Below, piece by piece: positions 7,513-28,762 of a stretch of 32,000 nucleotides of DNA (its first letter is position 1; each line of letters opens with the position of its first letter). The notes below the pieces were generated by a model. That model worked only from the letters and a program-made list of their open reading frames with translations, was not told the origin of the DNA and ran no database searches. The stretch lies in NCBI RefSeq assembly GCF_043950625.1, contig NZ_CP171007.1, one strand, 5' to 3'. Origin of the DNA: Alkanindiges sp. WGS2144. Its GTDB lineage: Bacteria > Pseudomonadota > Gammaproteobacteria > Pseudomonadales > Moraxellaceae. The position numbers and the translations under genes are program-made.

Positions 7513-9345
7513 TTAGGCAGCACTTTCTGCATTAACAGCTTCTACCAATGCTTCACGACGTGCTTTAAGTGCTTGTGGCAAGCGGTCACCAATTTTTTCA
7601 AACAACTCTGCATGGCTTTGCAATTCTTTATTCCATTGCTCAGCATTTTGCGAAGTGACTTGTTCAAACTGTTCAGGGCTAAAGTCAGAACCAGTCCAGT
7701 TGAGCTGCTCATAGCTGGGTACATAGCCAATTGGTGTTTCAGTGGCGTCTACACGGCCTTCGCAACGGTCGATCATCCATTGCAGAACACGCATGTTTTG
7801 ACCAAAACCAGGCCAGATAAAGTCACCATTTTCGTCACGACGGAACCAGTTTACGTTGAAAATCTTGGGCAGCTTGGCACCGGATTTTTCCAGTTTCTCA
7901 CCCAGGTTTAACCAGTGCTGGAAGTAGTCGCCCATGTTGTAACCGGCAAACGGCAGCATGGCAAACGGGTCGCGACGGACAATGCCTTGCTGACCGACAG
8001 CCGCAGCGGTGGTTTCAGAGCCCATAGTGGCTGCTTTGTACACGCCATCTACCCAATCAAAGGCTTCTACCACTAAAGGGACAGTGTCGGCACGACGGCC
8101 ACCAAAGATAAAGGCAGAAATAGGCACGCCAGCTGGATTTTCCCAGTCAGCATCAATGGATGGGCACTGGCTGGCAGATACAGTAAAACGTGCGTTTGGA
8201 TGCGCTGCCTTGGTACCAGATTCAGCAGTCCATGGCTTACCAGTCCAGTCAGTTAAATTGGCAGGTGCTTCTTTGCTTAGACCTTCCCACCATACTTCGC
8301 CATCATCAGTCACTGCCACGTTGGTATAGATTACGTTTTCGTTTAAGGTTGCCATGCAGTTGGGGTTGGTTTTGGTATTCGTACCCGGTGCAACGCCAAA
8401 GAAGCCGGCTTCAGGGTTAATGGCGTATAGGCGGCAATCTTCACCAGGTTTAATCCAGGCAATATCATCACCCACGGTTTCTACTTTCCAGCCTTCAAAG
8501 CCAGCAGGTGGAATCAGCATGGCAAAGTTGGTTTTACCACAGGCAGACGGGAAGGCAGCCGCCACGTAGTGTTTTTCACCTTGTGGGTTGGTTAAGCCCA
8601 GAATCAGCATGTGCTCGGCCAGCCAGCCCTGATCACGACCCATCACAGAGGCAATACGTAGCGCCAGGCACTTTTTACCCAATAAGGCATTACCACCGTA
8701 ACCTGAGCCATAAGACCAGATTTCACGGGTTTCTGGATAGTGAACAATGTATTTGGTGTCATTGCATGGCCAGGATACATCTTTTTGACCGGCTTCCAGT
8801 GGCATGCCAACAGAGTGAACGCAAGGCACAAACTCACCATCAGTACCCAGTACGTCGTACACTGCCTTGCCCATACGCGCCATAATACGCATGTTGACCA
8901 CCACATAAGGAGAGTCGGTTAACTCAATCCCGATGTGAGCAATATGGCTGCCTAAAGGACCCATGGAAAAAGGCACCACATACATGGTACGTCCGCGCAT
9001 ACAGCCTTCAAACAGACCATTTAAGGTTTGACGCATTTCTGCTGGCGCCATCCAGTGATTGGTTGCGCCGGCATCTTCCTGTTTTTCTGAGCAAATAAAG
9101 GTACGGTCTTCAACCCGCGCTACGTCAGATGGATCGGAGCTGGCAAGATAAGAATTTGGATGCTTTTCTTGATTTAATTTTTGCATGGTGCCGTTTGCAA
9201 CCATCAGGTCGAGCAGGCGCTGGTTTTCTTCACTGCTGCCATCGCACCATTCGATACGGTCAGGTTGCGTTAGTGCTGCGATTTGTTCCACCCATGCGAT
9301 CAGTTTAGGGTGGCGAACGAATTCAGGTGCGTTCACTTGGGTCAT
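7513..9345 (-). CDS. pckG: Phosphoenolpyruvate carboxykinase (GTP)
   Basis: The start at ATG 9345 ([15 protein letters not shown]...) gives ~610 aa. The GTP-PEPCK kinase-1a motif FPSACGKTN is present, with family-wide similarity. The track's 19-codon N-terminal extension is unlikely. Confidence 0.92.
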
Positions 9346-19919: not shown

Positions 19920-20624
19920 ATGACTTATTATTGTATTGCGCTGCCTTTGAGCCAGAGTTTTGAGCAAGAACTTAGCCGGTTAAGCCAGCAGCTCAATGCA
20001 GGGGAGAAACGCTCACTGTCAGAGCAAACCGGTAAACTGATGGGGGAGGCATCCTGCCAGATTATTGATGGTGTATTTCAGCACATGGTTGAGCAACTAT
20101 TGCAAATACAGGGCTTAACAGAGCCAAAGTGTGCCAGTCTGCTGGCCTCTCTTGAGCATATCAGTGCAGTAAAAGCAGTTTTACGCAAATACACGGGCTG
20201 GGCAGTATCGTGGTTTGGTAATGAGCGCCTGACGCCGGTAGTGAATATGTATGCCAGCATGATTCAGCGGGCAGAAAATGGTCAGCCTTATTTGATGTTT
20301 GACTTGCCGCAGTCTACTGCTGAACGGGCGCTGCTGGCGCTATGCAGTCTTGAGCATGGCAAGGTGAGTAATGCTGAAGGCGCTATGGAAAGTCTGGTTG
20401 AAGTCACAGATATTGGGGTGGATGCGCTCATTCGCCAGCCAAAAAAACTGCTTCATTTTAACTTTGTCGCGGATAAAACCTTAAATGGCGTGATCAATAT
20501 GACCACTGCCATGGCCTACAAAAACCTGCGTAAGTTAGGCCAGCAGCTTGATCCACTGCTATTTAAAGCCGTTGCCACGCATTTACAGCAGTTTATTCAG
20601 GAGAAAAAAACTGACACGCTTTAG
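19920..20624 (+). CDS. Hypothetical protein with no recognisable family
   Basis: A 234-codon ORF starts 35 nt after the SDR gene on the same strand. It is predicted helical and I recognise no motifs. Confidence 0.5.
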   Translation: MTYYCIALPLSQSFEQELSRLSQQLNAGEKRSLSEQTGKLMGEASCQIIDGVFQHMVEQLLQIQGLTEPKCASLLASLEHISAVKAVLRKYTGWAVSWFGNERLTPVVNMYASMIQRAENGQPYLMFDLPQSTAERALLALCSLEHGKVSNAEGAMESLVEVTDIGVDALIRQPKKLLHFNFVADKTLNGVINMTTAMAYKNLRKLGQQLDPLLFKAVATHLQQFIQEKKTDTL

Positions 20625-23101: not shown

Positions 23102-24141
23102 TGGAATCAATAAAAGTGCTGATGAAACAATTGCTTGAGCAACCCATAGATCCCAATGAATTACGTGAGCGTTGGAACATTGATGCACCTTGGCAGTCCA
23201 CTGGCGTACTTGAACCATTAAATATCATTACTGGTAAATTAATGTACCGCCAGGCTATGTATCGTGAAAGCCGCTTTTATGGTTTTAAGCTGAAGCATCA
23301 TCATATTGATGGCTTTAATATATATTGGTTATGCAATGAAAAACCTAAAAAATCACGTGGTACCTTATTGCTACTCCATGGTTTAAGTGCTGAAAAAGCC
23401 CACTGGTTACGATTTGCACGCTACTTTGTGAAAGATTATCACATTGTGATTCCAGATCTGGCTGGACATGGCCAAACAGGTTATGTACCTGATGCCGATT
23501 ACAGCACAGAAGCACAAGCCAAACGTATGATTGAATTATTGGATCATTTGCACATTGATAAAGTACATGTGCTGGGTAATTCCATGGGTGGATTTATTGC
23601 TGCTCGTCTAGCCACCAAGTGGCCAGAACGTATTGCCAGTTTAGGTTTGATGAATGCAGCAGGCTTACAGGCGCGTACCCATAGTGTGTTAGTTCAATCG
23701 ATAGAAGCAGGTAGAAACCCATTTTTATTAAATTCACTAGCAGAGTTTGATGAGTTGATGAACCTGGCTGCTTTTAAACAGCAATGGCTGCCTTCTCAGG
23801 TTAAACTTATGCTGGCCAAGCAATACTCAGATCGACGCGAACGTTTGTTTAATATATTTTTGCAGTTGCAGCAGGAAATTTATCCACACGACTGGGTAAG
23901 TGAACAAATCGCCGAAGTTGATATGCCTGCTTTTGTGGTCTGGGGCGAATTTGATAAGCTGCTTGATATAGACATGCTTAAGCATTTTGCTGAACTCATA
24001 CCGCATGCCAAAACTGTTGCCATGCCGCAAACTGGACATATGCCAATGATCGAGCGTCCATTGCGCACTGCAAGGTATTACCGTAAGTTCTTAAAAGAAC
24101 TGAGTTTAAAGAGAAAAAGTGTGCTAGATGCAATTAAATAA
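23101..24141 (+). CDS. Alpha/beta-fold hydrolase
   Basis: The start is coupled to the upstream stop (TAATG). It has an HG oxyanion region (LLLLHGLSA), the nucleophile elbow GNSMGG, and a C-terminal TGHMPMIE (catalytic His). Confidence 0.8.
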   Translation: MESIKVLMKQLLEQPIDPNELRERWNIDAPWQSTGVLEPLNIITGKLMYRQAMYRESRFYGFKLKHHHIDGFNIYWLCNEKPKKSRGTLLLLHGLSAEKAHWLRFARYFVKDYHIVIPDLAGHGQTGYVPDADYSTEAQAKRMIELLDHLHIDKVHVLGNSMGGFIAARLATKWPERIASLGLMNAAGLQARTHSVLVQSIEAGRNPFLLNSLAEFDELMNLAAFKQQWLPSQVKLMLAKQYSDRRERLFNIFLQLQQEIYPHDWVSEQIAEVDMPAFVVWGEFDKLLDIDMLKHFAELIPHAKTVAMPQTGHMPMIERPLRTARYYRKFLKELSLKRKSVLDAIK

Positions 24142-24240
24142 TAAAAAGGAGGATGCAAAAAATTATATTTGTAGTGCAAGGTTAACATGGTTTGAAAGTA
24201 TGTGAGCTTGAGCAAATATTAGCTAAATAATGTTATTAAA

Positions 24241-24258
24241 TGTAATCCAGAGCGTACA
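24241..24258 (+). promoter_or_regulatory. GacA/UvrY-box-like palindrome upstream of the candidate sRNA
   Basis: TGTAAT-CCAGAG-CGTACA compared with the Pseudomonas rsmX/Y/Z upstream activating sequence TGTAAG-N6-CTTACA, with one mismatch per half-site. Candidate -10 elements are TAAAAT (24292-24297) or TATTAC (24305-24310), placing the box ~55-70 nt upstream of the start. Confidence 0.45.
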
Positions 24259-24304
24259 GTGATTGTCGCCCTAGCGACTATCTTCAGCCAGTAAAATACG
24301 CGAT

Positions 24305-24478
24305 TATTACTCCAGCGAAACAGGGATGACATGGCACGGAATGGTAGTTTACCAGCCACTAAGGATAGCCATTATCGCAGGGAAAGCCATTTGTAGGACT
24401 CAAATGGATAGATGACATGATGTCAGCAGGACGCTAAAAAATACCCGACCATTCAGGATGAATTCAGTCGGGTTTTTT
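24305..24478 (+). ncRNA. Candidate Csr/Rsm-family (CsrB/RsmY/RsmZ-like) CsrA-sequestering small RNA. The 5' end is approximate.
   Basis: There are eight GGA motifs in 135 nt on the + strand only, at 24324, 24338, 24363, 24381, 24396, 24406, 24429 and 24456. Several have CsrA-site contexts (CAGGGAUG, ACGGAAU, UAAGGAUA, CAGGGAA, GUAGGAC, GCAGGAC, UCAGGAUGA). Several fall in short predicted loops (CUA-AGGA-UAG, AGC-AGGAC-GCU, UUG-UAGGACU-CAA). The last lies in the apical loop of the terminator. No ORF is present, and the region sits between convergent genes. Confidence 0.55.
24443..24478 (+). terminator. Intrinsic terminator ending the candidate sRNA
   Basis: ACCCGAC-C-ATTC-AGGAT-GAAT-TCA-GTCGGGT followed by TTTTTTAT. 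Confidence 0.7.
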
Positions 24479-24599
24479 ATGCCTGAAATATTTGTGCTGG
24501 CATGGATTGAGCCAAATCATTGTAAGATTTATAGTGAAATCAATGTTAAATAAAAAGTATTTTATTGATGAGCTAAAGTCAGCGCTGTGGAAACTGCAT

Positions 24600-24634
24600 A
24601 AAAAAGCAGAGGTCAACATGACGTCTGCTTTTTT
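24600..24634 (-). terminator. Bidirectional intrinsic terminator, chiefly for the symporter/mini-ORF operon
   Basis: GCAGAGGTC-AACAT-GACGTCTGC has one mismatch. It is flanked by A6 on the left and T6 on the right, 18 nt past the mini-ORF stop on the minus strand. Confidence 0.6.
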
Positions 24635-24652
24635 AATGGGCTGGTTTTAAAT

Positions 24653-24784
24653 TTATACCAGATCTTCGCCGGTTCTTTTGGCTTCCTGGATGTCCTGGTA
24701 TAAGCTATAGCATAAAATGATCAGTAAAGTCGTAGCCACCATCGGCCAGAATAATACATAGATCGTTAATAAAGTAGCATTCAT
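24653..24784 (-). CDS. 43-aa single-TM membrane peptide translationally coupled to the symporter (possible symporter accessory subunit)
   Basis: My hand translation is MNATLLTIYVLFWPMVATTLLIILCYSLYQDIQEAKRTGEDLV. Its ATG overlaps the symporter TGA (ATGA). It has one hydrophobic helix plus a charged tail, and a terminator follows. It is below the ORF-track cutoff. Confidence 0.6.
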   Translation of the reverse strand: MNATLLTIYVLFWPMVATTLLIILCYSLYQDIQEAKRTGEDLV

Positions 24785-26433
24785 GCTTTATCTCCTTTTT
24801 TACTGTTTACGGTAATATCATGAAACTCAATGACCATTCTGTCGATTTGATTAAAATCAAATCGTGGTTTTGAACTTCTTAAAGTCAGTAATGTGCAGGT
24901 TAGCGCACTGGCGCCATAGGCAGTCAATGAGCTGAGCAGGACAATATGTTCGCGTAAAAAGCCAAAATAAACAGGCAGACAAACGACTGCGGTAATGCCG
25001 CCTACCCAAAGGCCTACTTTTTTGCCAAAGAAACCAAAACTCATTAGGCCCAGTACTACCCCTGTGCCAATAGCAGCGATGACTTCAAAGAAAGTGGCAA
25101 ATAAACCTGTTAAGGACAGCCATTCAAAGCGCACTAATAAAAAACTTAAGAATGCGACAGCCACTGACCAGTTAAATGCAGAGGCAGTGACTTTGTTCCA
25201 GTACAGGCTGGCAATCACCGGAAAGACGATAGCCCCCCATAACGCGCCAACAAAAATCAGCATCGACAAAATATCAAACTTGAAAGTAGCAAGAATAATG
25301 CCGGTCATGGTCGCAATGATCATGGTTACCCGTCCAATCAGCAGCATTTTCTTTGGGTTAGGCTGGTTCTTGGCAATCTGCTTACCATAGATATCCGTCA
25401 TTACAATGGCAGAAAGCGCAGATAAATCAGAGTCAGCCGTAGAGGATAGTGAACCAATGACCATTACAAATAGTAGCGCCACCATAAAAGGTGACAAATA
25501 GGTGGCAGCCATTTGCGGGATCAGGTTGTTTAAATCACCGTCAATGGGTTGAATACCGGCAAATAATGCGAGCATACCTAACATTCCCAGGCCAATAACA
25601 ATAGAAGCATAGCCAATGGTTGCAGTGATAAAGCTGGGTTTAATTAAATCTTCACGTACGGCAAATAAGCGCTGTGCAATGGTCTGGTTGCCGATGGCAT
25701 AGGCCAATACAGCCACAAAAAACGGTGCACCTTGTTCTAAAAAGGCAGTCTTGGAAAAAAAGCTAAGCTGCTCAGGTTGGAGATGGTGTGCACCTGTCTG
25801 GAATAGTGAAGGACCACCAAGGGTAAAAAACAACACCGGAATAATGATCACTGCTGCGATCATCATGGCCATAAGCTGACCAAAGTCGGTAAACACCGAG
25901 GAGCGAAAACCTGACCACAAGGTATAAGACAGCACACCTAGGCCGGTAATGAGCACACCCTGGCTAAAGCTAAGCGGAGATAATATTTCCACCAGCGTAC
26001 CAGCGGCAGTAAAATTTACCATCAGGCTGATGATACTCCCTACAATATTAGAGCCTGCCAGAATAAGCTGGCTTTGGTTGCCATGCCGTGCGTGCATGAT
26101 CTCTGCCAGAGTGTGGGCGTTAGGTGCAAGTTCCCGAAAACGCTTACCAAAAGGATAGATAAACAAAATCATGAGTGCGCCCCATAACCCATAATGGAGC
26201 GCCCCTGAAATACCGTATTTATAACCTGAGGAAGCAGCAGCATAAAATGAAGCGGCCCAGATCCAGGTGGCAGTCATACTGGCTGCTGACATACTAAAAC
26301 CAATAGAACCATTGGAGACCATATAGCCATCAACATTTTCATTTTTTCGGCCAATGCGTAATGCCATTAAAAAGGTCAGGCCATAAAAAAGAACCATCAA
26401 TAGTACAATTGCTGTACTAGAGAACTGAAACAT
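24781..26433 (-). CDS. Sodium:solute symporter (SSS/SSF) family transporter
   Basis: 550 aa with ~13 hydrophobic segments. The N-terminal pattern (GRKNENVDGYMVSNGSIGFSMSAASMTATWIWAASF) is typical of the SSF family. An AAGGAG RBS is present. Confidence 0.85.
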   Translation of the reverse strand: MFQFSSTAIVLLMVLFYGLTFLMALRIGRKNENVDGYMVSNGSIGFSMSAASMTATWIWAASFYAAASSGYKYGISGALHYGLWGALMILFIYPFGKRFRELAPNAHTLAEIMHARHGNQSQLILAGSNIVGSIISLMVNFTAAGTLVEILSPLSFSQGVLITGLGVLSYTLWSGFRSSVFTDFGQLMAMMIAAVIIIPVLFFTLGGPSLFQTGAHHLQPEQLSFFSKTAFLEQGAPFFVAVLAYAIGNQTIAQRLFAVREDLIKPSFITATIGYASIVIGLGMLGMLALFAGIQPIDGDLNNLIPQMAATYLSPFMVALLFVMVIGSLSSTADSDLSALSAIVMTDIYGKQIAKNQPNPKKMLLIGRVTMIIATMTGIILATFKFDILSMLIFVGALWGAIVFPVIASLYWNKVTASAFNWSVAVAFLSFLLVRFEWLSLTGLFATFFEVIAAIGTGVVLGLMSFGFFGKKVGLWVGGITAVVCLPVYFGFLREHIVLLSSLTAYGASALTCTLLTLRSSKPRFDFNQIDRMVIEFHDITVNSKKGDKA

Positions 26434-27118
26434 AATTACTCCTTAATTTAATCATCAGTTCTTCGGCAGCAAGCGCTGGACTGATGATGGACTAAGGCTC
26501 TTGTGGATGTAGAGCGTAGAAGCTGTAGTAAGTATAAAAAATCAAAGTGATGAATAAAGTATGCTATTCAAAACTACAGCAGATCAGGCGTGGCCTGTAT
26601 AGAGATAAGGAGAAGCTGAAAATACAGCCGCCCTTTGGAATAGTGCGAAGAATATTAACATAAAAACATCAACTATACTGATTAAGGCAAGAGGTTTTGG
26701 TGGTTTTACTAATATATCTAAATATCGATAAAGCTTATTTTTTTCTTATAAAATACTTAATTTGTTTGATTCCTATAAAGATTTTAAAAATAAAATTTTG
26801 CTATAGTCACCACATTTAAGTAAATGTAACAAAAATTATCTATGGCTGGTCAATAGCCAATTACTCTCTAAATTTCAGCTTTGCCTATAACCAGCTAATA
26901 ATACAATACTCCCTTTAGTAATATGCTGGGAGTCGAGCTGTTATCGAACAGTAGTTTTATGAATAAAGAATGAGATTGTGCAGGGGCAATTCATCATAAA
27001 ATCTTAAATCTTAATGATCTATCAATAAAATCGTTATTAGTTATGCAAAAAAAGCGTTTTATTGATGAAGCAAAGCTAGGTATGATGCGCGGCTGAAATA
27101 ATGAACTAGCCGTGAGCC

Positions 27119-28762
27119 ATGTATCAATATACCGAGTTTGACCAACAATTGCTCAATGAGCGTCTGGCACAATTTACCGACCAGATTCAGCGCTACCTTG
27201 CAGGTACTTTGTCTGATAGCGAACTGTTACCATTACGTTTGCAAAATGGCCTTTATATTCAGCGTTACGCACCGATGTTTCGTATTGCTGTACCTTATGG
27301 CTTACTGGCAAGCCGTCAACTGCGCAAACTGGCTTCCGTTACCCGCAAATATGACCGTGGTTATGCGCATGTCTCTACCCGGCAGAATTTCCAGCTCAAC
27401 TGGACAGCCCTGGAAGATGTTCCAGCCGCGCTGGGTGAACTGATGAGTGTACAGATGCACTCTATTCAAACCAGTGGTAACTGTATTCGCAATACCACCA
27501 CCGATCAGTTTGCCGGTGTTACTCCAGGTGAAATTATTGATCCACGGCCTACCTGTGAATTAATTCGCCAGTGGAGTACGTTTCATCCCGAGTTTGCCTT
27601 CCTGCCACGTAAATTTAAAATTGCCGTATCCGCATTGGCGGAAGTAGACCGTGCCGCCACCGCATTTCACGATATTGGCGTTTATATTGTTCAAAATGAA
27701 GCAGGTGAAATTGGTTATCGTATTTTGGTGGGTGGCGGTCTTGGACGTACACCAGTGATTGGCAGCTTTATTCGTGATTTCCTGCCACGTGAAGACTTAC
27801 TGGCCTATCTGGAATCCATTGTACGAGTGTATAATCTGCATGGTCGTCGTGATAACAAGTTTAAGGCGCGGATTAAAATTCTGGTCAGAGCCTTAACTCC
27901 TGAGGTATTTGCCCAAAAAGTAGAAGCCGAGTTTGCCCAGATTCGTGAGCAGCGTAAAACCGACCCTGAGCTCTTGGCGCGTATGGATGCTGTATTTAGC
28001 CAGCCGCCGTATGAAACACTGGACAATGTGGATTTATCCGAACAGTTTGCTGCTGACAAGGCATTTGCCAACTGGTTTAGGCATAACACCCACGAACATA
28101 AAATGCCGGGTTACCGTATTGTGACCATCTCCTTAAAGCGGGCGGGGGTAGCACCGGGCGATATTACCGACGATGAACTGGAAATGGTAGCTGACCTGGC
28201 TGACCGCTACAGTTTTGGTGAAGTACGCAATACGCATGAGCAAAACATGGTGCTGGCAGATGTGCCACAAAAAGATTTGTATGCGGTGTATCAGGTATTA
28301 AACCAGCATAATATGGCACGCGCTCATATTGGACTGGTGACTGATATTATTTGTTGCCCGGGTGGCGATTACTGTGCACTGGCCAATGCCAAATCCATTC
28401 CTATTGCCGAGGCCATCAGTCGCCGTCTGGACGATCTGGATACGGTGTATAACCTGGGCAAAATTGATCTTAATATCTCTGGCTGTATGAATGCCTGTGG
28501 CCATCACCATGCCGGTCATATTGGTATTCTGGGCGTGGACAAAAAAGGCGCTGAGTTTTATCAGGTTACGCTGGGTGGTAATAGTGACCATGATGCCAGC
28601 ATTGGTAATATTCTGGGGCCATCATTTGCTGCACAGGATATGCCGGATGTGATTGAGGAAGTTTTAAATACCTATCTGGATTTAAGAACCCCGGACGAGC
28701 GCTTTTTGGATACGTATCGCCGTGTTGGTATTCAACCGTTTAAGGAGCGTGTCTATGCCTAA
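27119..28762 (+). CDS. cysI: Assimilatory sulfite reductase hemoprotein (NirA/CysI-type, siroheme/4Fe-4S)
   Basis: The N-terminus MYQYTEFDQQLLNERLAQFTDQIQRYLAG...LRLQNGLYIQRYAPMFRIAVPYG matches the Pseudomonas-type CysI as I remember it. Cluster/siroheme cysteines are CPGGDYCALA and SGCMNACGHHH. An in-frame TGA lies 6 nt upstream of the ATG. Confidence 0.9.
   Translation: MYQYTEFDQQLLNERLAQFTDQIQRYLAGTLSDSELLPLRLQNGLYIQRYAPMFRIAVPYGLLASRQLRKLASVTRKYDRGYAHVSTRQNFQLNWTALEDVPAALGELMSVQMHSIQTSGNCIRNTTTDQFAGVTPGEIIDPRPTCELIRQWSTFHPEFAFLPRKFKIAVSALAEVDRAATAFHDIGVYIVQNEAGEIGYRILVGGGLGRTPVIGSFIRDFLPREDLLAYLESIVRVYNLHGRRDNKFKARIKILVRALTPEVFAQKVEAEFAQIREQRKTDPELLARMDAVFSQPPYETLDNVDLSEQFAADKAFANWFRHNTHEHKMPGYRIVTISLKRAGVAPGDITDDELEMVADLADRYSFGEVRNTHEQNMVLADVPQKDLYAVYQVLNQHNMARAHIGLVTDIICCPGGDYCALANAKSIPIAEAISRRLDDLDTVYNLGKIDLNISGCMNACGHHHAGHIGILGVDKKGAEFYQVTLGGNSDHDASIGNILGPSFAAQDMPDVIEEVLNTYLDLRTPDERFLDTYRRVGIQPFKERVYA

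Follow-up and report, generated by a model that had tools for sequence, protein, structure and literature searches.

Genomic context of the element

The DNA analysed here is a 32-kb stretch from Alkanindiges sp. WGS2144, referred to as a whole as the window. Gene calls place an AraC regulator gene first on the - strand, followed on the + strand by genes for a family III CoA-transferase and an alpha/beta hydrolase, the latter ending at 24141. Directly 3' of the hydrolase gene, at 24241-24478 on the + strand, lies the element that is the subject of this report. It is faced by a convergent sodium:solute symporter operon on the - strand (24653-26433), the last gene of which (24653-24784) encodes a transporter small subunit of 43 aa (NF038354, E = 7.7e-17). 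Beyond this operon, a nitrite/sulfite reductase gene (nirA/cysI-like; 27119-28762) is found on the same strand as the element. The gap between the hydrolase stop codon and that of the transporter small subunit is 511 bp (24142-24652), and the element is intergenic. A preliminary description had put this spacer at 640 bp, a figure that the 43-aa ORF corrects.

Alkanindiges is a genus in the Moraxellaceae, with Acinetobacter as a sister genus. The nitrite/sulfite reductase of the window is 100% identical to a protein of Alkanindiges sp. WGS2144, and the ValS protein encoded in the window is 79-81% identical to those of Acinetobacter species. In all relatives for which the locus was obtained, the hydrolase gene is followed directly by the reductase gene and no symporter operon lies between them. 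Because the hydrolase gene directly precedes the reductase gene in every relative, the symporter operon is best regarded as an insertion peculiar to the lineage of the window. Its 2.5 kb now part the element from the reductase gene, and the element itself is intact.

Density and strand asymmetry of GGA motifs

Eight GGA triplets begin on the + strand at 24324, 24338, 24363, 24381, 24396, 24406, 24429, and 24456. They fall within 135 nt (24324-24458), for which the GGA frequency over the window as a whole, 0.0113 per nt, predicts about 1.5. Eight GGA are attained in no further 140-nt stretch of the 32 kb, whichever strand is read, and the TCC maximum per 140-nt stretch in the window is six. The only TCC in 24300-24478 is at 24311, and 24320-24460 has none, so that a recount agrees with the earlier statement of eight GGA in 135 nt and a single TCC on the same strand. 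The resulting GGA/TCC asymmetry between strands is the strongest anywhere in the 32 kb. At the level of the predicted RNA it amounts to eight GGA versus no UCC, and the homologous RNAs described below hold zero or one UCC each.

Six of the eight motifs have the form AGGA or ARGGA, and the CsrA-type contexts quoted previously (CAGGGAUGA, UAAGGAUAG, and UCAGGAUGA) are present as described. Shuffles that preserve the RNA's own G-rich dinucleotide content already yield 5.0 +/- 1.5 GGA; the enrichment is therefore one relative to the genome background, and not relative to local composition.

Promoter region and upstream palindrome

At the 5' end of the element lies an imperfect palindrome, TGTAAT-CCAGAG-CGTACA (TGTAATCCAGAGCGTACA; 24241-24258, + strand), which is a candidate GacA/UvrY-type upstream activating sequence. 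The preliminary description had reported this box with one mismatch per half-site, and it was found exactly so: it differs at two positions from TGTAAG-N6-CTTACA, a consensus that comes from Pseudomonas. We know of no GacA binding motif that has been determined for Moraxellaceae. Matches with two mismatches or fewer number two in the window versus 1.49 expected per 32 kb, and the box sequence taken alone is statistically unremarkable. The box carries weight because of its position and its conservation, not because of the sequence match alone. Among eight relatives, 16 of its 18 positions are invariant or G/T (consensus TGTAAKCCNNAGCGTACA). The interval between the box and a conserved AGCGA has no gaps across eight aligned sequences, despite diverged sequence in between, and the centre of the box is always 64.5 nt 5' of AGCGA. 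No second GacA-like box was found in the window or in any fetched locus.

Several further positions in this region are conserved. A GTTA at 24232-24235 on the + strand, 6 nt 5' of the box, is unchanged in all eight promoter sequences and may be an extension of the activator site or a second site. Downstream of the box, a spacer block (ATTGTCGCCCTAGCGACT; 24263-24280, + strand) is partly conserved, with T65, G66, G69, T73, C76, C79, and T80 invariant (numbering of alignment A5). It contains the inverted repeat GTCGC-N4-GCGAC (24265-24278, + strand) and is possibly a site for an auxiliary regulator. It is followed by the -10-like hexamer GATTAT (24302-24307, + strand), which reads GAnnAT in all relatives (G103, A104, A107, and T108 of A5 are invariant). 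Conservation resumes 7 nt past this hexamer, where AGCGA starts.

No good -35 is evident, as expected of an activator-dependent promoter. Because GTTA, the box, the spacer positions, GAnnAT, and AGCGA are conserved at fixed spacing, we infer a putative transcription start at about 24314, at the conserved AGCGA, relative to which the box would span about -73 to -56. The box had previously been placed 55-70 nt 5' of the -10 elements. This distance needs correction, as the box centre is about 45-55 nt from the candidate -10 hexamers.

Predicted RNA architecture

From the putative +1 at AGCGA to the end of a U-tract, the predicted sRNA spans about 165 nt (24314-24478, + strand). Its first GGA site (ACAGGGAUGA; 24320-24329, + strand) has GGA in 7/7 sequences at alignment column 11. 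In the relatives this site reads ACAAGGAUGU (ACARGGAUGN near the 5' end) and matches the published SELEX consensus of CsrA, RUACARGGAUGU.

Stem-loop 2 (24332-24358, + strand) consists of an outer UGGC/GCCA helix around a variable inner hairpin, which is GGUA/UACC in the window. The outer helix is kept in 7/7 sequences with a single swap of A-U to U-A, and four pairs of the inner helix are altered on both sides. Its internal loop holds site 2 (CACGGAAU; 24335-24342, + strand), at which GGA is again present in 7/7 sequences (column 25). Site 3 (UAAGGAUA; 24360-24367, + strand) follows 3' of stem-loop 2 in single-stranded sequence, likewise with GGA in all seven (column 65). It is unpaired with a probability of 0.74 in the window and of at least 0.9 in loci L006 and L016.

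The centre of the RNA (24379-24407, + strand) is remodelled in a manner peculiar to the window. An additional CAGGGAAA is present (GGA at 24381), and a hairpin has arisen, CCAUUUG-UAGGACU-CAAAUGG, which has GGA 24396 in its loop and in whose stem the ancestral AAUGGAU (GGA 24406) now lies. The relatives carry CUCGAA-UGGAUnU-UUCGAG at the centre, with GGA in the loop and with compensatory changes in the stem. They also have a variable GGA-free hairpin that the window lacks. Similarly, their ACAGGAUGU site is missing in the window, which has ACAUGAUGU at 24416-24424.

The 3' portion is the most uniform. The hairpin AGC-AGGAC-GCU (24425-24435, + strand) presents GGA site 7 in its loop (GGA 24429; unpaired probability 0.78-1.0), and AGCAGGAYGCU is invariant in 7/7 sequences. 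It is followed by an intrinsic terminator (24438-24478, + strand), in which an A-tract and a U-tract flank ACCCGAC/GUCGGGU. Its stem pairs 24443-24449 with 24467-24473, with an inner AUUCA/UGAAU stem (24451-24455 with 24459-24463) and a U6 tail. The preliminary description had noted a strong terminator with an AGGAU apical loop, and this was borne out by a predicted energy of -13.4 kcal/mol together with the U6 tail. The apical GGA (24456-24458) is predicted to be unpaired in every sequence (probability 1.0), and a 29-nt block of the terminator is almost invariant in 7/7, with one compensatory change of G-C to A-U.

The independent minimum-energy folds of the relatives agree on one architecture. 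From 5' to 3', this comprises a long-range 5' GCGA/UCGC helix; site 1; the UGGC/GCCA stem, which encloses a variable inner hairpin and whose internal loop holds site 2 (CAMGGAAU); the single-stranded UAAGGAUA of site 3; the GGA-less variable hairpin; CUCGAA-UGGAUnU-UUCGAG with site 4 in the loop; the single-stranded ACAGGAUGU of site 5; AGC-AGGAY-GCU with site 6 in the loop; and the terminator, which presents site 7 apically. GGA triplets have a mean unpaired probability of 0.75-0.97, compared to 0.37-0.44 over all triplets. The earlier placement of GGA motifs in hairpin loops is thus upheld as far as preferential exposure is concerned, but the window's own fold leaves only about five of the eight clearly unpaired.

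Conservation among relatives

Orthologous loci were gathered via the hydrolase protein. A scan of genome contigs with this protein gave one locus, an exact look-up of the window's own hydrolase gave no record, and the other homologues came from protein-anchored contig look-ups. The element is present in seven distinct loci (the window and the Alkanindiges-like loci L001, L002, L006 from a Moraxellaceae MAG, L008, L015, and L016) and, in part, in the truncated locus L019. The hydrolases of the element-bearing loci are 64-94% identical to that of the window. In all of them, the element is situated after the hydrolase gene and before the nirA/cysI-like gene, and the gap in element-bearing loci is about 500 bp. 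The homologous RNAs in the six other loci are 160-186 nt in length. A covariance model (R1) scores 120-198 bits in these six loci, and it detects no second copy in the window or in these loci. A repeat or mobile element was also considered and rejected, as each locus has a single copy and the window has no other.

Seven alignment sites carry GGA in at least six of the seven sequences. Before the terminator, 16 of the 18 GGA columns are invariant, compared to 36 of the 131 other columns. The flanking spacer has diverged freely, while the box, the -10, the GGA triplets, and the helices have been retained without any shift in position. The preliminary description had proposed conservation of the GGA motifs and of the palindromic box as a check of its reading, and both are retained in relatives at fixed geometry.

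The helices were compared in two ways. In a model-fitted alignment, 88.9% of cells are paired, versus 27-43% with partners slid. Two-sided pair changes number 13 in this alignment, versus 6.4 +/- 1.8 in shuffles (0/500 attain 13) and 1-6 in slid controls, counts that derive from only seven sequences and from an alignment fitted to the model structure. With a plain MAFFT alignment, the covariation term of RNAalifold is +0.84, which is slightly unfavourable, and only three pairs are compensatory. Most GGA hairpins are too invariant for covariation. The variants of one GGA-presenting hairpin (CUGAA/UUCAG, CUCGAA/UUCGAG, and GUCGAA/UUCGAC) differ by an insertion that is itself paired and by a closing pair that is flipped.

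The element is missing in relatives L011-L014, L017, and L018, whose hydrolases are 57-69% identical to that of the window and in which the gaps are shorter or hold other inserts. The syntenic locus of A. baumannii, reached via the NirA orthologue, consists of genes for an AraC regulator, a CoA-transferase, OprB, a PQQ-dehydrogenase, and NirA; no such RNA, box, or GGA cluster is found there, and model R1 detects nothing in 17.6 kb. Because it is missing from the distant relatives and from the A. baumannii syntenic site, the element is either lineage-restricted or located elsewhere in those genomes. Exact-pattern scans of metagenome contigs with the terminator block and with a 5' block gave no match, nor did an exact-pattern scan of viral contigs or blastn of PLSDB plasmids.

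Comparison with known Csr/Rsm RNAs

At gathering threshold, Rfam models detect only two tRNAs in the whole window and no Csr/Rsm family. The best match below threshold is to CsrB (RF00018), with 9 bits in the window, 14.7 in L006 (E = 0.021), and 20 in L016 (E = 5.5e-4), compared to a threshold of 71; with the window trimmed to the RNA, CsrB is not matched. Scans of the window, L006, and L016 at a lax E-value returned only weak CsrB and terminator-like matches. In L016 there are two lower-scoring overlapping matches to families of clan CL00106, and otherwise RsmX/Y/Z and CsrC have no match at E <= 10 in these three sequences. The only weak Rfam similarity that recurs is thus that to CsrB/RsmB. 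As regards membership in CsrB, RsmY, PrrB_RsmZ, RsmX, and CsrC (clan CL00106), all scores lie below the gathering score, and the element is outside any recognisable Rfam family. The covariance-model check proposed in the preliminary description therefore gave no gathering-level match and only a weak CsrB similarity. This does not by itself refute the earlier reading, because a missing model match had been coupled there to an absence of conservation, and the element is strongly conserved.

Kulkarni et al. 2006 (PMC1488887) used five sequence criteria to recognise sRNAs that regulate CsrA, and the element displays all five. It is intergenic, in the 511-bp gap with no conserved ORF. Its density of AGGA/ARGGA is high, with six such motifs among the 8 GGA in 135 nt and with 7-9 GGA in the homologues. 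A Rho-independent terminator (hairpin 24443-24473 and U6) is kept in 7/7. The GGA triplets are in loops or free regions, as indicated by their unpaired probabilities and by the conserved loop positions. Finally, a conserved GacA/UvrY-type site is present upstream, with the consensus TGTAAKCCNNAGCGTACA at a fixed distance in eight sequences, although this site is insignificant by itself.

The element has a close likeness to RsmY, RsmZ, and RsmX of Pseudomonas (RF00195, RF00166, and the RsmX family; CL00106), which are of a similar size class (about 110-170 nt) and are also stand-alone intergenic genes with several GGA in hairpin loops and linkers and with an intrinsic terminator. Additionally, the element shares with rsmY an 18-bp palindrome like TGTAAG-N6-CTTACA about 65-75 nt 5' of the start, the GacA site of P. 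aeruginosa rsmY being at -75 (PMC4950607). The differences are equally clear. No sequence or structure homology to RsmX/Y/Z is detectable, since no covariance-model match is at or near threshold. Unlike in Pseudomonas, all relatives have CGTACA as the right half-site of the box and a conserved N6 (CCNNAG), the apical loop of the terminator itself bears GGA, and a long-range 5' GCGA/UCGC helix closes around a multibranch domain. The element may nevertheless work like RsmY and RsmZ, even though it scores short of membership in their Rfam families. With CsrB/RsmB (RF00018) and CsrC of the Enterobacteriaceae it shares repeated A(N)GGA hairpins and, putatively, UvrY/GacA-type control. However, it is at most half as long, has 7-8 sites rather than about 18-22, and scores far under 71 bits.

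Within the Moraxellaceae, Kulkarni et al. 2006 (PMC1488887) predicted rsmX/Y/Z RNAs in Acinetobacter sp. ADP1 and candidates in Psychrobacter arcticum, and more ADP1 candidates followed in 2017 (PMC5568370). These predictions resemble the element in their family of hosts, in the five criteria by which they were recognised, and in a Pseudomonas-type 'rsmY upstream site' (PMC1488887). Their flanking genes differ (ACIAD0938/0939, ACIAD0480/gltP, and ACIAD3594/3596 in ADP1). The literature cited here reports no experimental validation of any predicted CsrA-sponge RNA from this family, and such RNAs are absent from review lists (PMC11611043; bioRxiv 10.1101/2021.08.11.455981). In a 2022 review table, both the RsmA and the sRNA columns are blank for A. 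baumannii (PMC11611043), and a 2021 preprint leaves the inventory of CsrA-binding ncRNAs in that species unclear (bioRxiv 10.1101/2021.08.11.455981). CsrA of Acinetobacter is essential on rich medium (PMC12802169), and Acinetobacter has GacSA, which controls virulence. No csrA or gacA/uvrY was matched by tblastn within the window and the fetched loci, and the presence of csrA and gacA/gacS in the WGS2144 genome is assumed here from Acinetobacter.

Proposed function and alternative explanations

Judged by comparative sequence data, the element is a conserved, structured, non-coding element with its own predicted promoter. We consider it likely that 24241-24478 on the + strand is a stand-alone gene for a Csr/Rsm-type sRNA that is activated in the manner of GacA and sequesters CsrA. 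Under this reading, a phosphorylated response regulator of the GacA/UvrY family would bind the imperfect palindrome at about -73 to -56 and would switch on a weak sigma-70 promoter (-10 GATTAT, without a -35). The transcript, of about 165 nt, would start near 24314 and stop at the 24443-24478 terminator. It would show 7-8 GGA, most of them as A(N)GGA, distributed over hairpin loops, single-stranded linkers, and an internal loop. The exposed GGA could titrate several CsrA dimers, and such titration would lift CsrA control from target mRNAs. That the element is transcribed, where exactly its RNA begins, and the roles of GacA as activator and of CsrA as ligand are inferred by analogy. The preliminary description had likewise read the element as a CsrA sponge of the Csr/Rsm family, which is supported by the conserved GGA and box, the exposure of GGA, and the lack of a conserved ORF. 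The assignment of the element as a new member of the Csr/Rsm class is well supported, and its activation is probably by GacA.

Of the other explanations, the one with the best, albeit slim, prospects is that the element encodes an independent sRNA that acts in another mode, for instance by Hfq- or ProQ-dependent base-pairing, the GGA and AGGA motifs being structural features irrelevant to anti-Shine-Dalgarno pairing or sites for another protein. An own promoter geometry and a U-tailed terminator are typical of base-pairing sRNAs, and there is no Rfam Csr/Rsm match at threshold. However, selection on seven dispersed unpaired GGA triplets is unexpected for an RNA with a single seed, as is the replacement of lost sites by new GGA in the window, and a GGA-rich RNA would pair with UCC-rich targets rather than with ribosome-binding sites.

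It is very improbable that the element acts in cis on the nirA/cysI-like sulfite reductase operon downstream, as its 5' leader or as an attenuator. This possibility arises from its position, as in six of the seven loci it is 100-250 bp 5' of the reductase gene and on the same strand. Nevertheless, it is intact in the window despite the intervening convergent operon, and it ends in a strong terminator, beyond which the reductase gene has a separate conserved upstream element (27019-27093). This latter element is also found in relatives without the RNA and in A. baumannii.

We attach equally little credence to the view that the hydrolase operon simply has its 3' UTR and terminator here, in a functionless sequence whose GGA cluster arose by chance. 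The position does fit, directly 3' of the genes for the CoA-transferase and the hydrolase and in their orientation, and shuffles with the RNA's own dinucleotides yield about five GGA. Against this, the box, the -10, the GGA, and the helices have remained fixed while the flanking spacer diverged, compensatory changes occur in the helices, and nowhere else in the 32 kb is the GGA/TCC strand asymmetry so extreme.

A small-protein gene is scarcely credible: each sequence holds ORFs of 21-66 codons, and a gene caller predicts one of 80 aa across the L008 copy (likely a spurious call), but these vary in start, frame, length, and sequence among relatives and indels of 1, 2, and 5 nt disrupt every frame. 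The earlier finding of no convincing ORF therefore stands, as no ORF is conserved among relatives.

The Csr/Rsm-type sRNA reading involves no new mechanism, and a CsrA sponge is expected in a gammaproteobacterium. Its interest lies in CsrA being a global post-transcriptional regulator, for which sRNAs that join it to GacSA are only predicted in Moraxellaceae, and in the fact that automatic annotation based on Rfam overlooks this sRNA class outside Pseudomonas and the enterics. With its covariance model, its variant of the box, and its promoter geometry, the element can serve as a concrete template for searches, and as a regulatory module it is small and testable. A bolder proposal, which we regard as tentative and on balance unlikely, is that it is the first comparatively supported member of an unrecognised, fast-evolving Rsm family of the Moraxellaceae that is absent from Rfam, and that the box variant (TGTAAK-N6-CGTACA at -65) together with the GGA-loop terminator could locate the CsrA sponges of A. 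baumannii.

The manner in which the GGA sites have been exchanged also bears on function. In the window, one ancestral site has been lost and another buried, and two new ones have been gained, one of them in the loop of the new hairpin; in every lineage the total is 7-9. This turnover at a steady number looks like selection on the count of exposed sites and not on sequence. Under the bolder proposal above, the replacement of GGA sites at a steady 7-9 would directly attest that selection acts on the capacity of the sponge and not on its sequence.

Symporter operon insertion downstream of the sRNA

A sodium:solute symporter gene and a gene for the 43-aa small subunit (NF038354), together spanning 24653-26433 on the minus strand, are present only in the window lineage when the window is compared with the orthologous loci L001-L016. 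Because all of these relatives have the nirA/cysI-like nitrite/sulfite reductase gene directly after the hydrolase gene and the GGA-rich sRNA, gene order indicates that the symporter operon is an insertion, placed after the sRNA terminator and ahead of the reductase promoter.

The reductase gene is itself preceded by a conserved element of ~75 nt (27019-27093, containing ATCAATAAAAnCnTTAT...GCAAAAAAAnnGTTTTATTGATGAAGC...), which is found in all relatives, from Alkanindiges through A. baumannii, with or without the sRNA at the locus; in the relative locus L020, for instance, its counterpart lies upstream of the reductase gene at ~7900-7990. It probably combines a promoter with a binding site for a regulator, perhaps of the CysB type. 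Just 3' of the sRNA, a 27-nt segment (24552-24578) is a partial copy of this element, matching 27049-27075 with a local alignment score of 32, compared to 17 ± 2.4 (maximum 28) for shuffled sequences. The symporter insertion probably left this copy behind, as a scar or a duplication. Another strong hairpin, AAAAAAGCAGAGGUCAACAUGACGUCUGCUUUUUU, follows at 24598-24640; with A- and U-runs on its flanks, it looks like a bidirectional terminator at the end of the symporter operon, and it explains the lax Rfam matches to Atu_C9 and GibS.

Other features of the locus and its relatives

Within the sRNA promoter region, a partly conserved block (24263-24280) between the candidate GacA/UvrY-type box and the -10-like hexamer holds the inverted repeat GTCGC-N4-GCGAC, and a second regulator might bind there. 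At L017, a relative locus that lacks the sRNA element and has a 69% identical hydrolase, three short ORFs of 90, 85 and 57 aa (L017 1615-2300) fill the sRNA position. None of them has a Pfam match, and the insert may be toxin-antitoxin-like.

At L008, an orthologous locus with the sRNA element, a gene caller predicted an 80-aa protein (L008 5318-5560) that overlaps the sRNA homologue at the 3' half of the RNA. This call is likely spurious, since the reading frame is not conserved in the other relatives. Elsewhere in the window, a 234-aa ORF (19920-20624, plus strand) without a Pfam or NCBIfam match lies between the SDR and AraC genes, and relatives conserve it in this interval as genes of 238-261 aa, likewise without a Pfam match.
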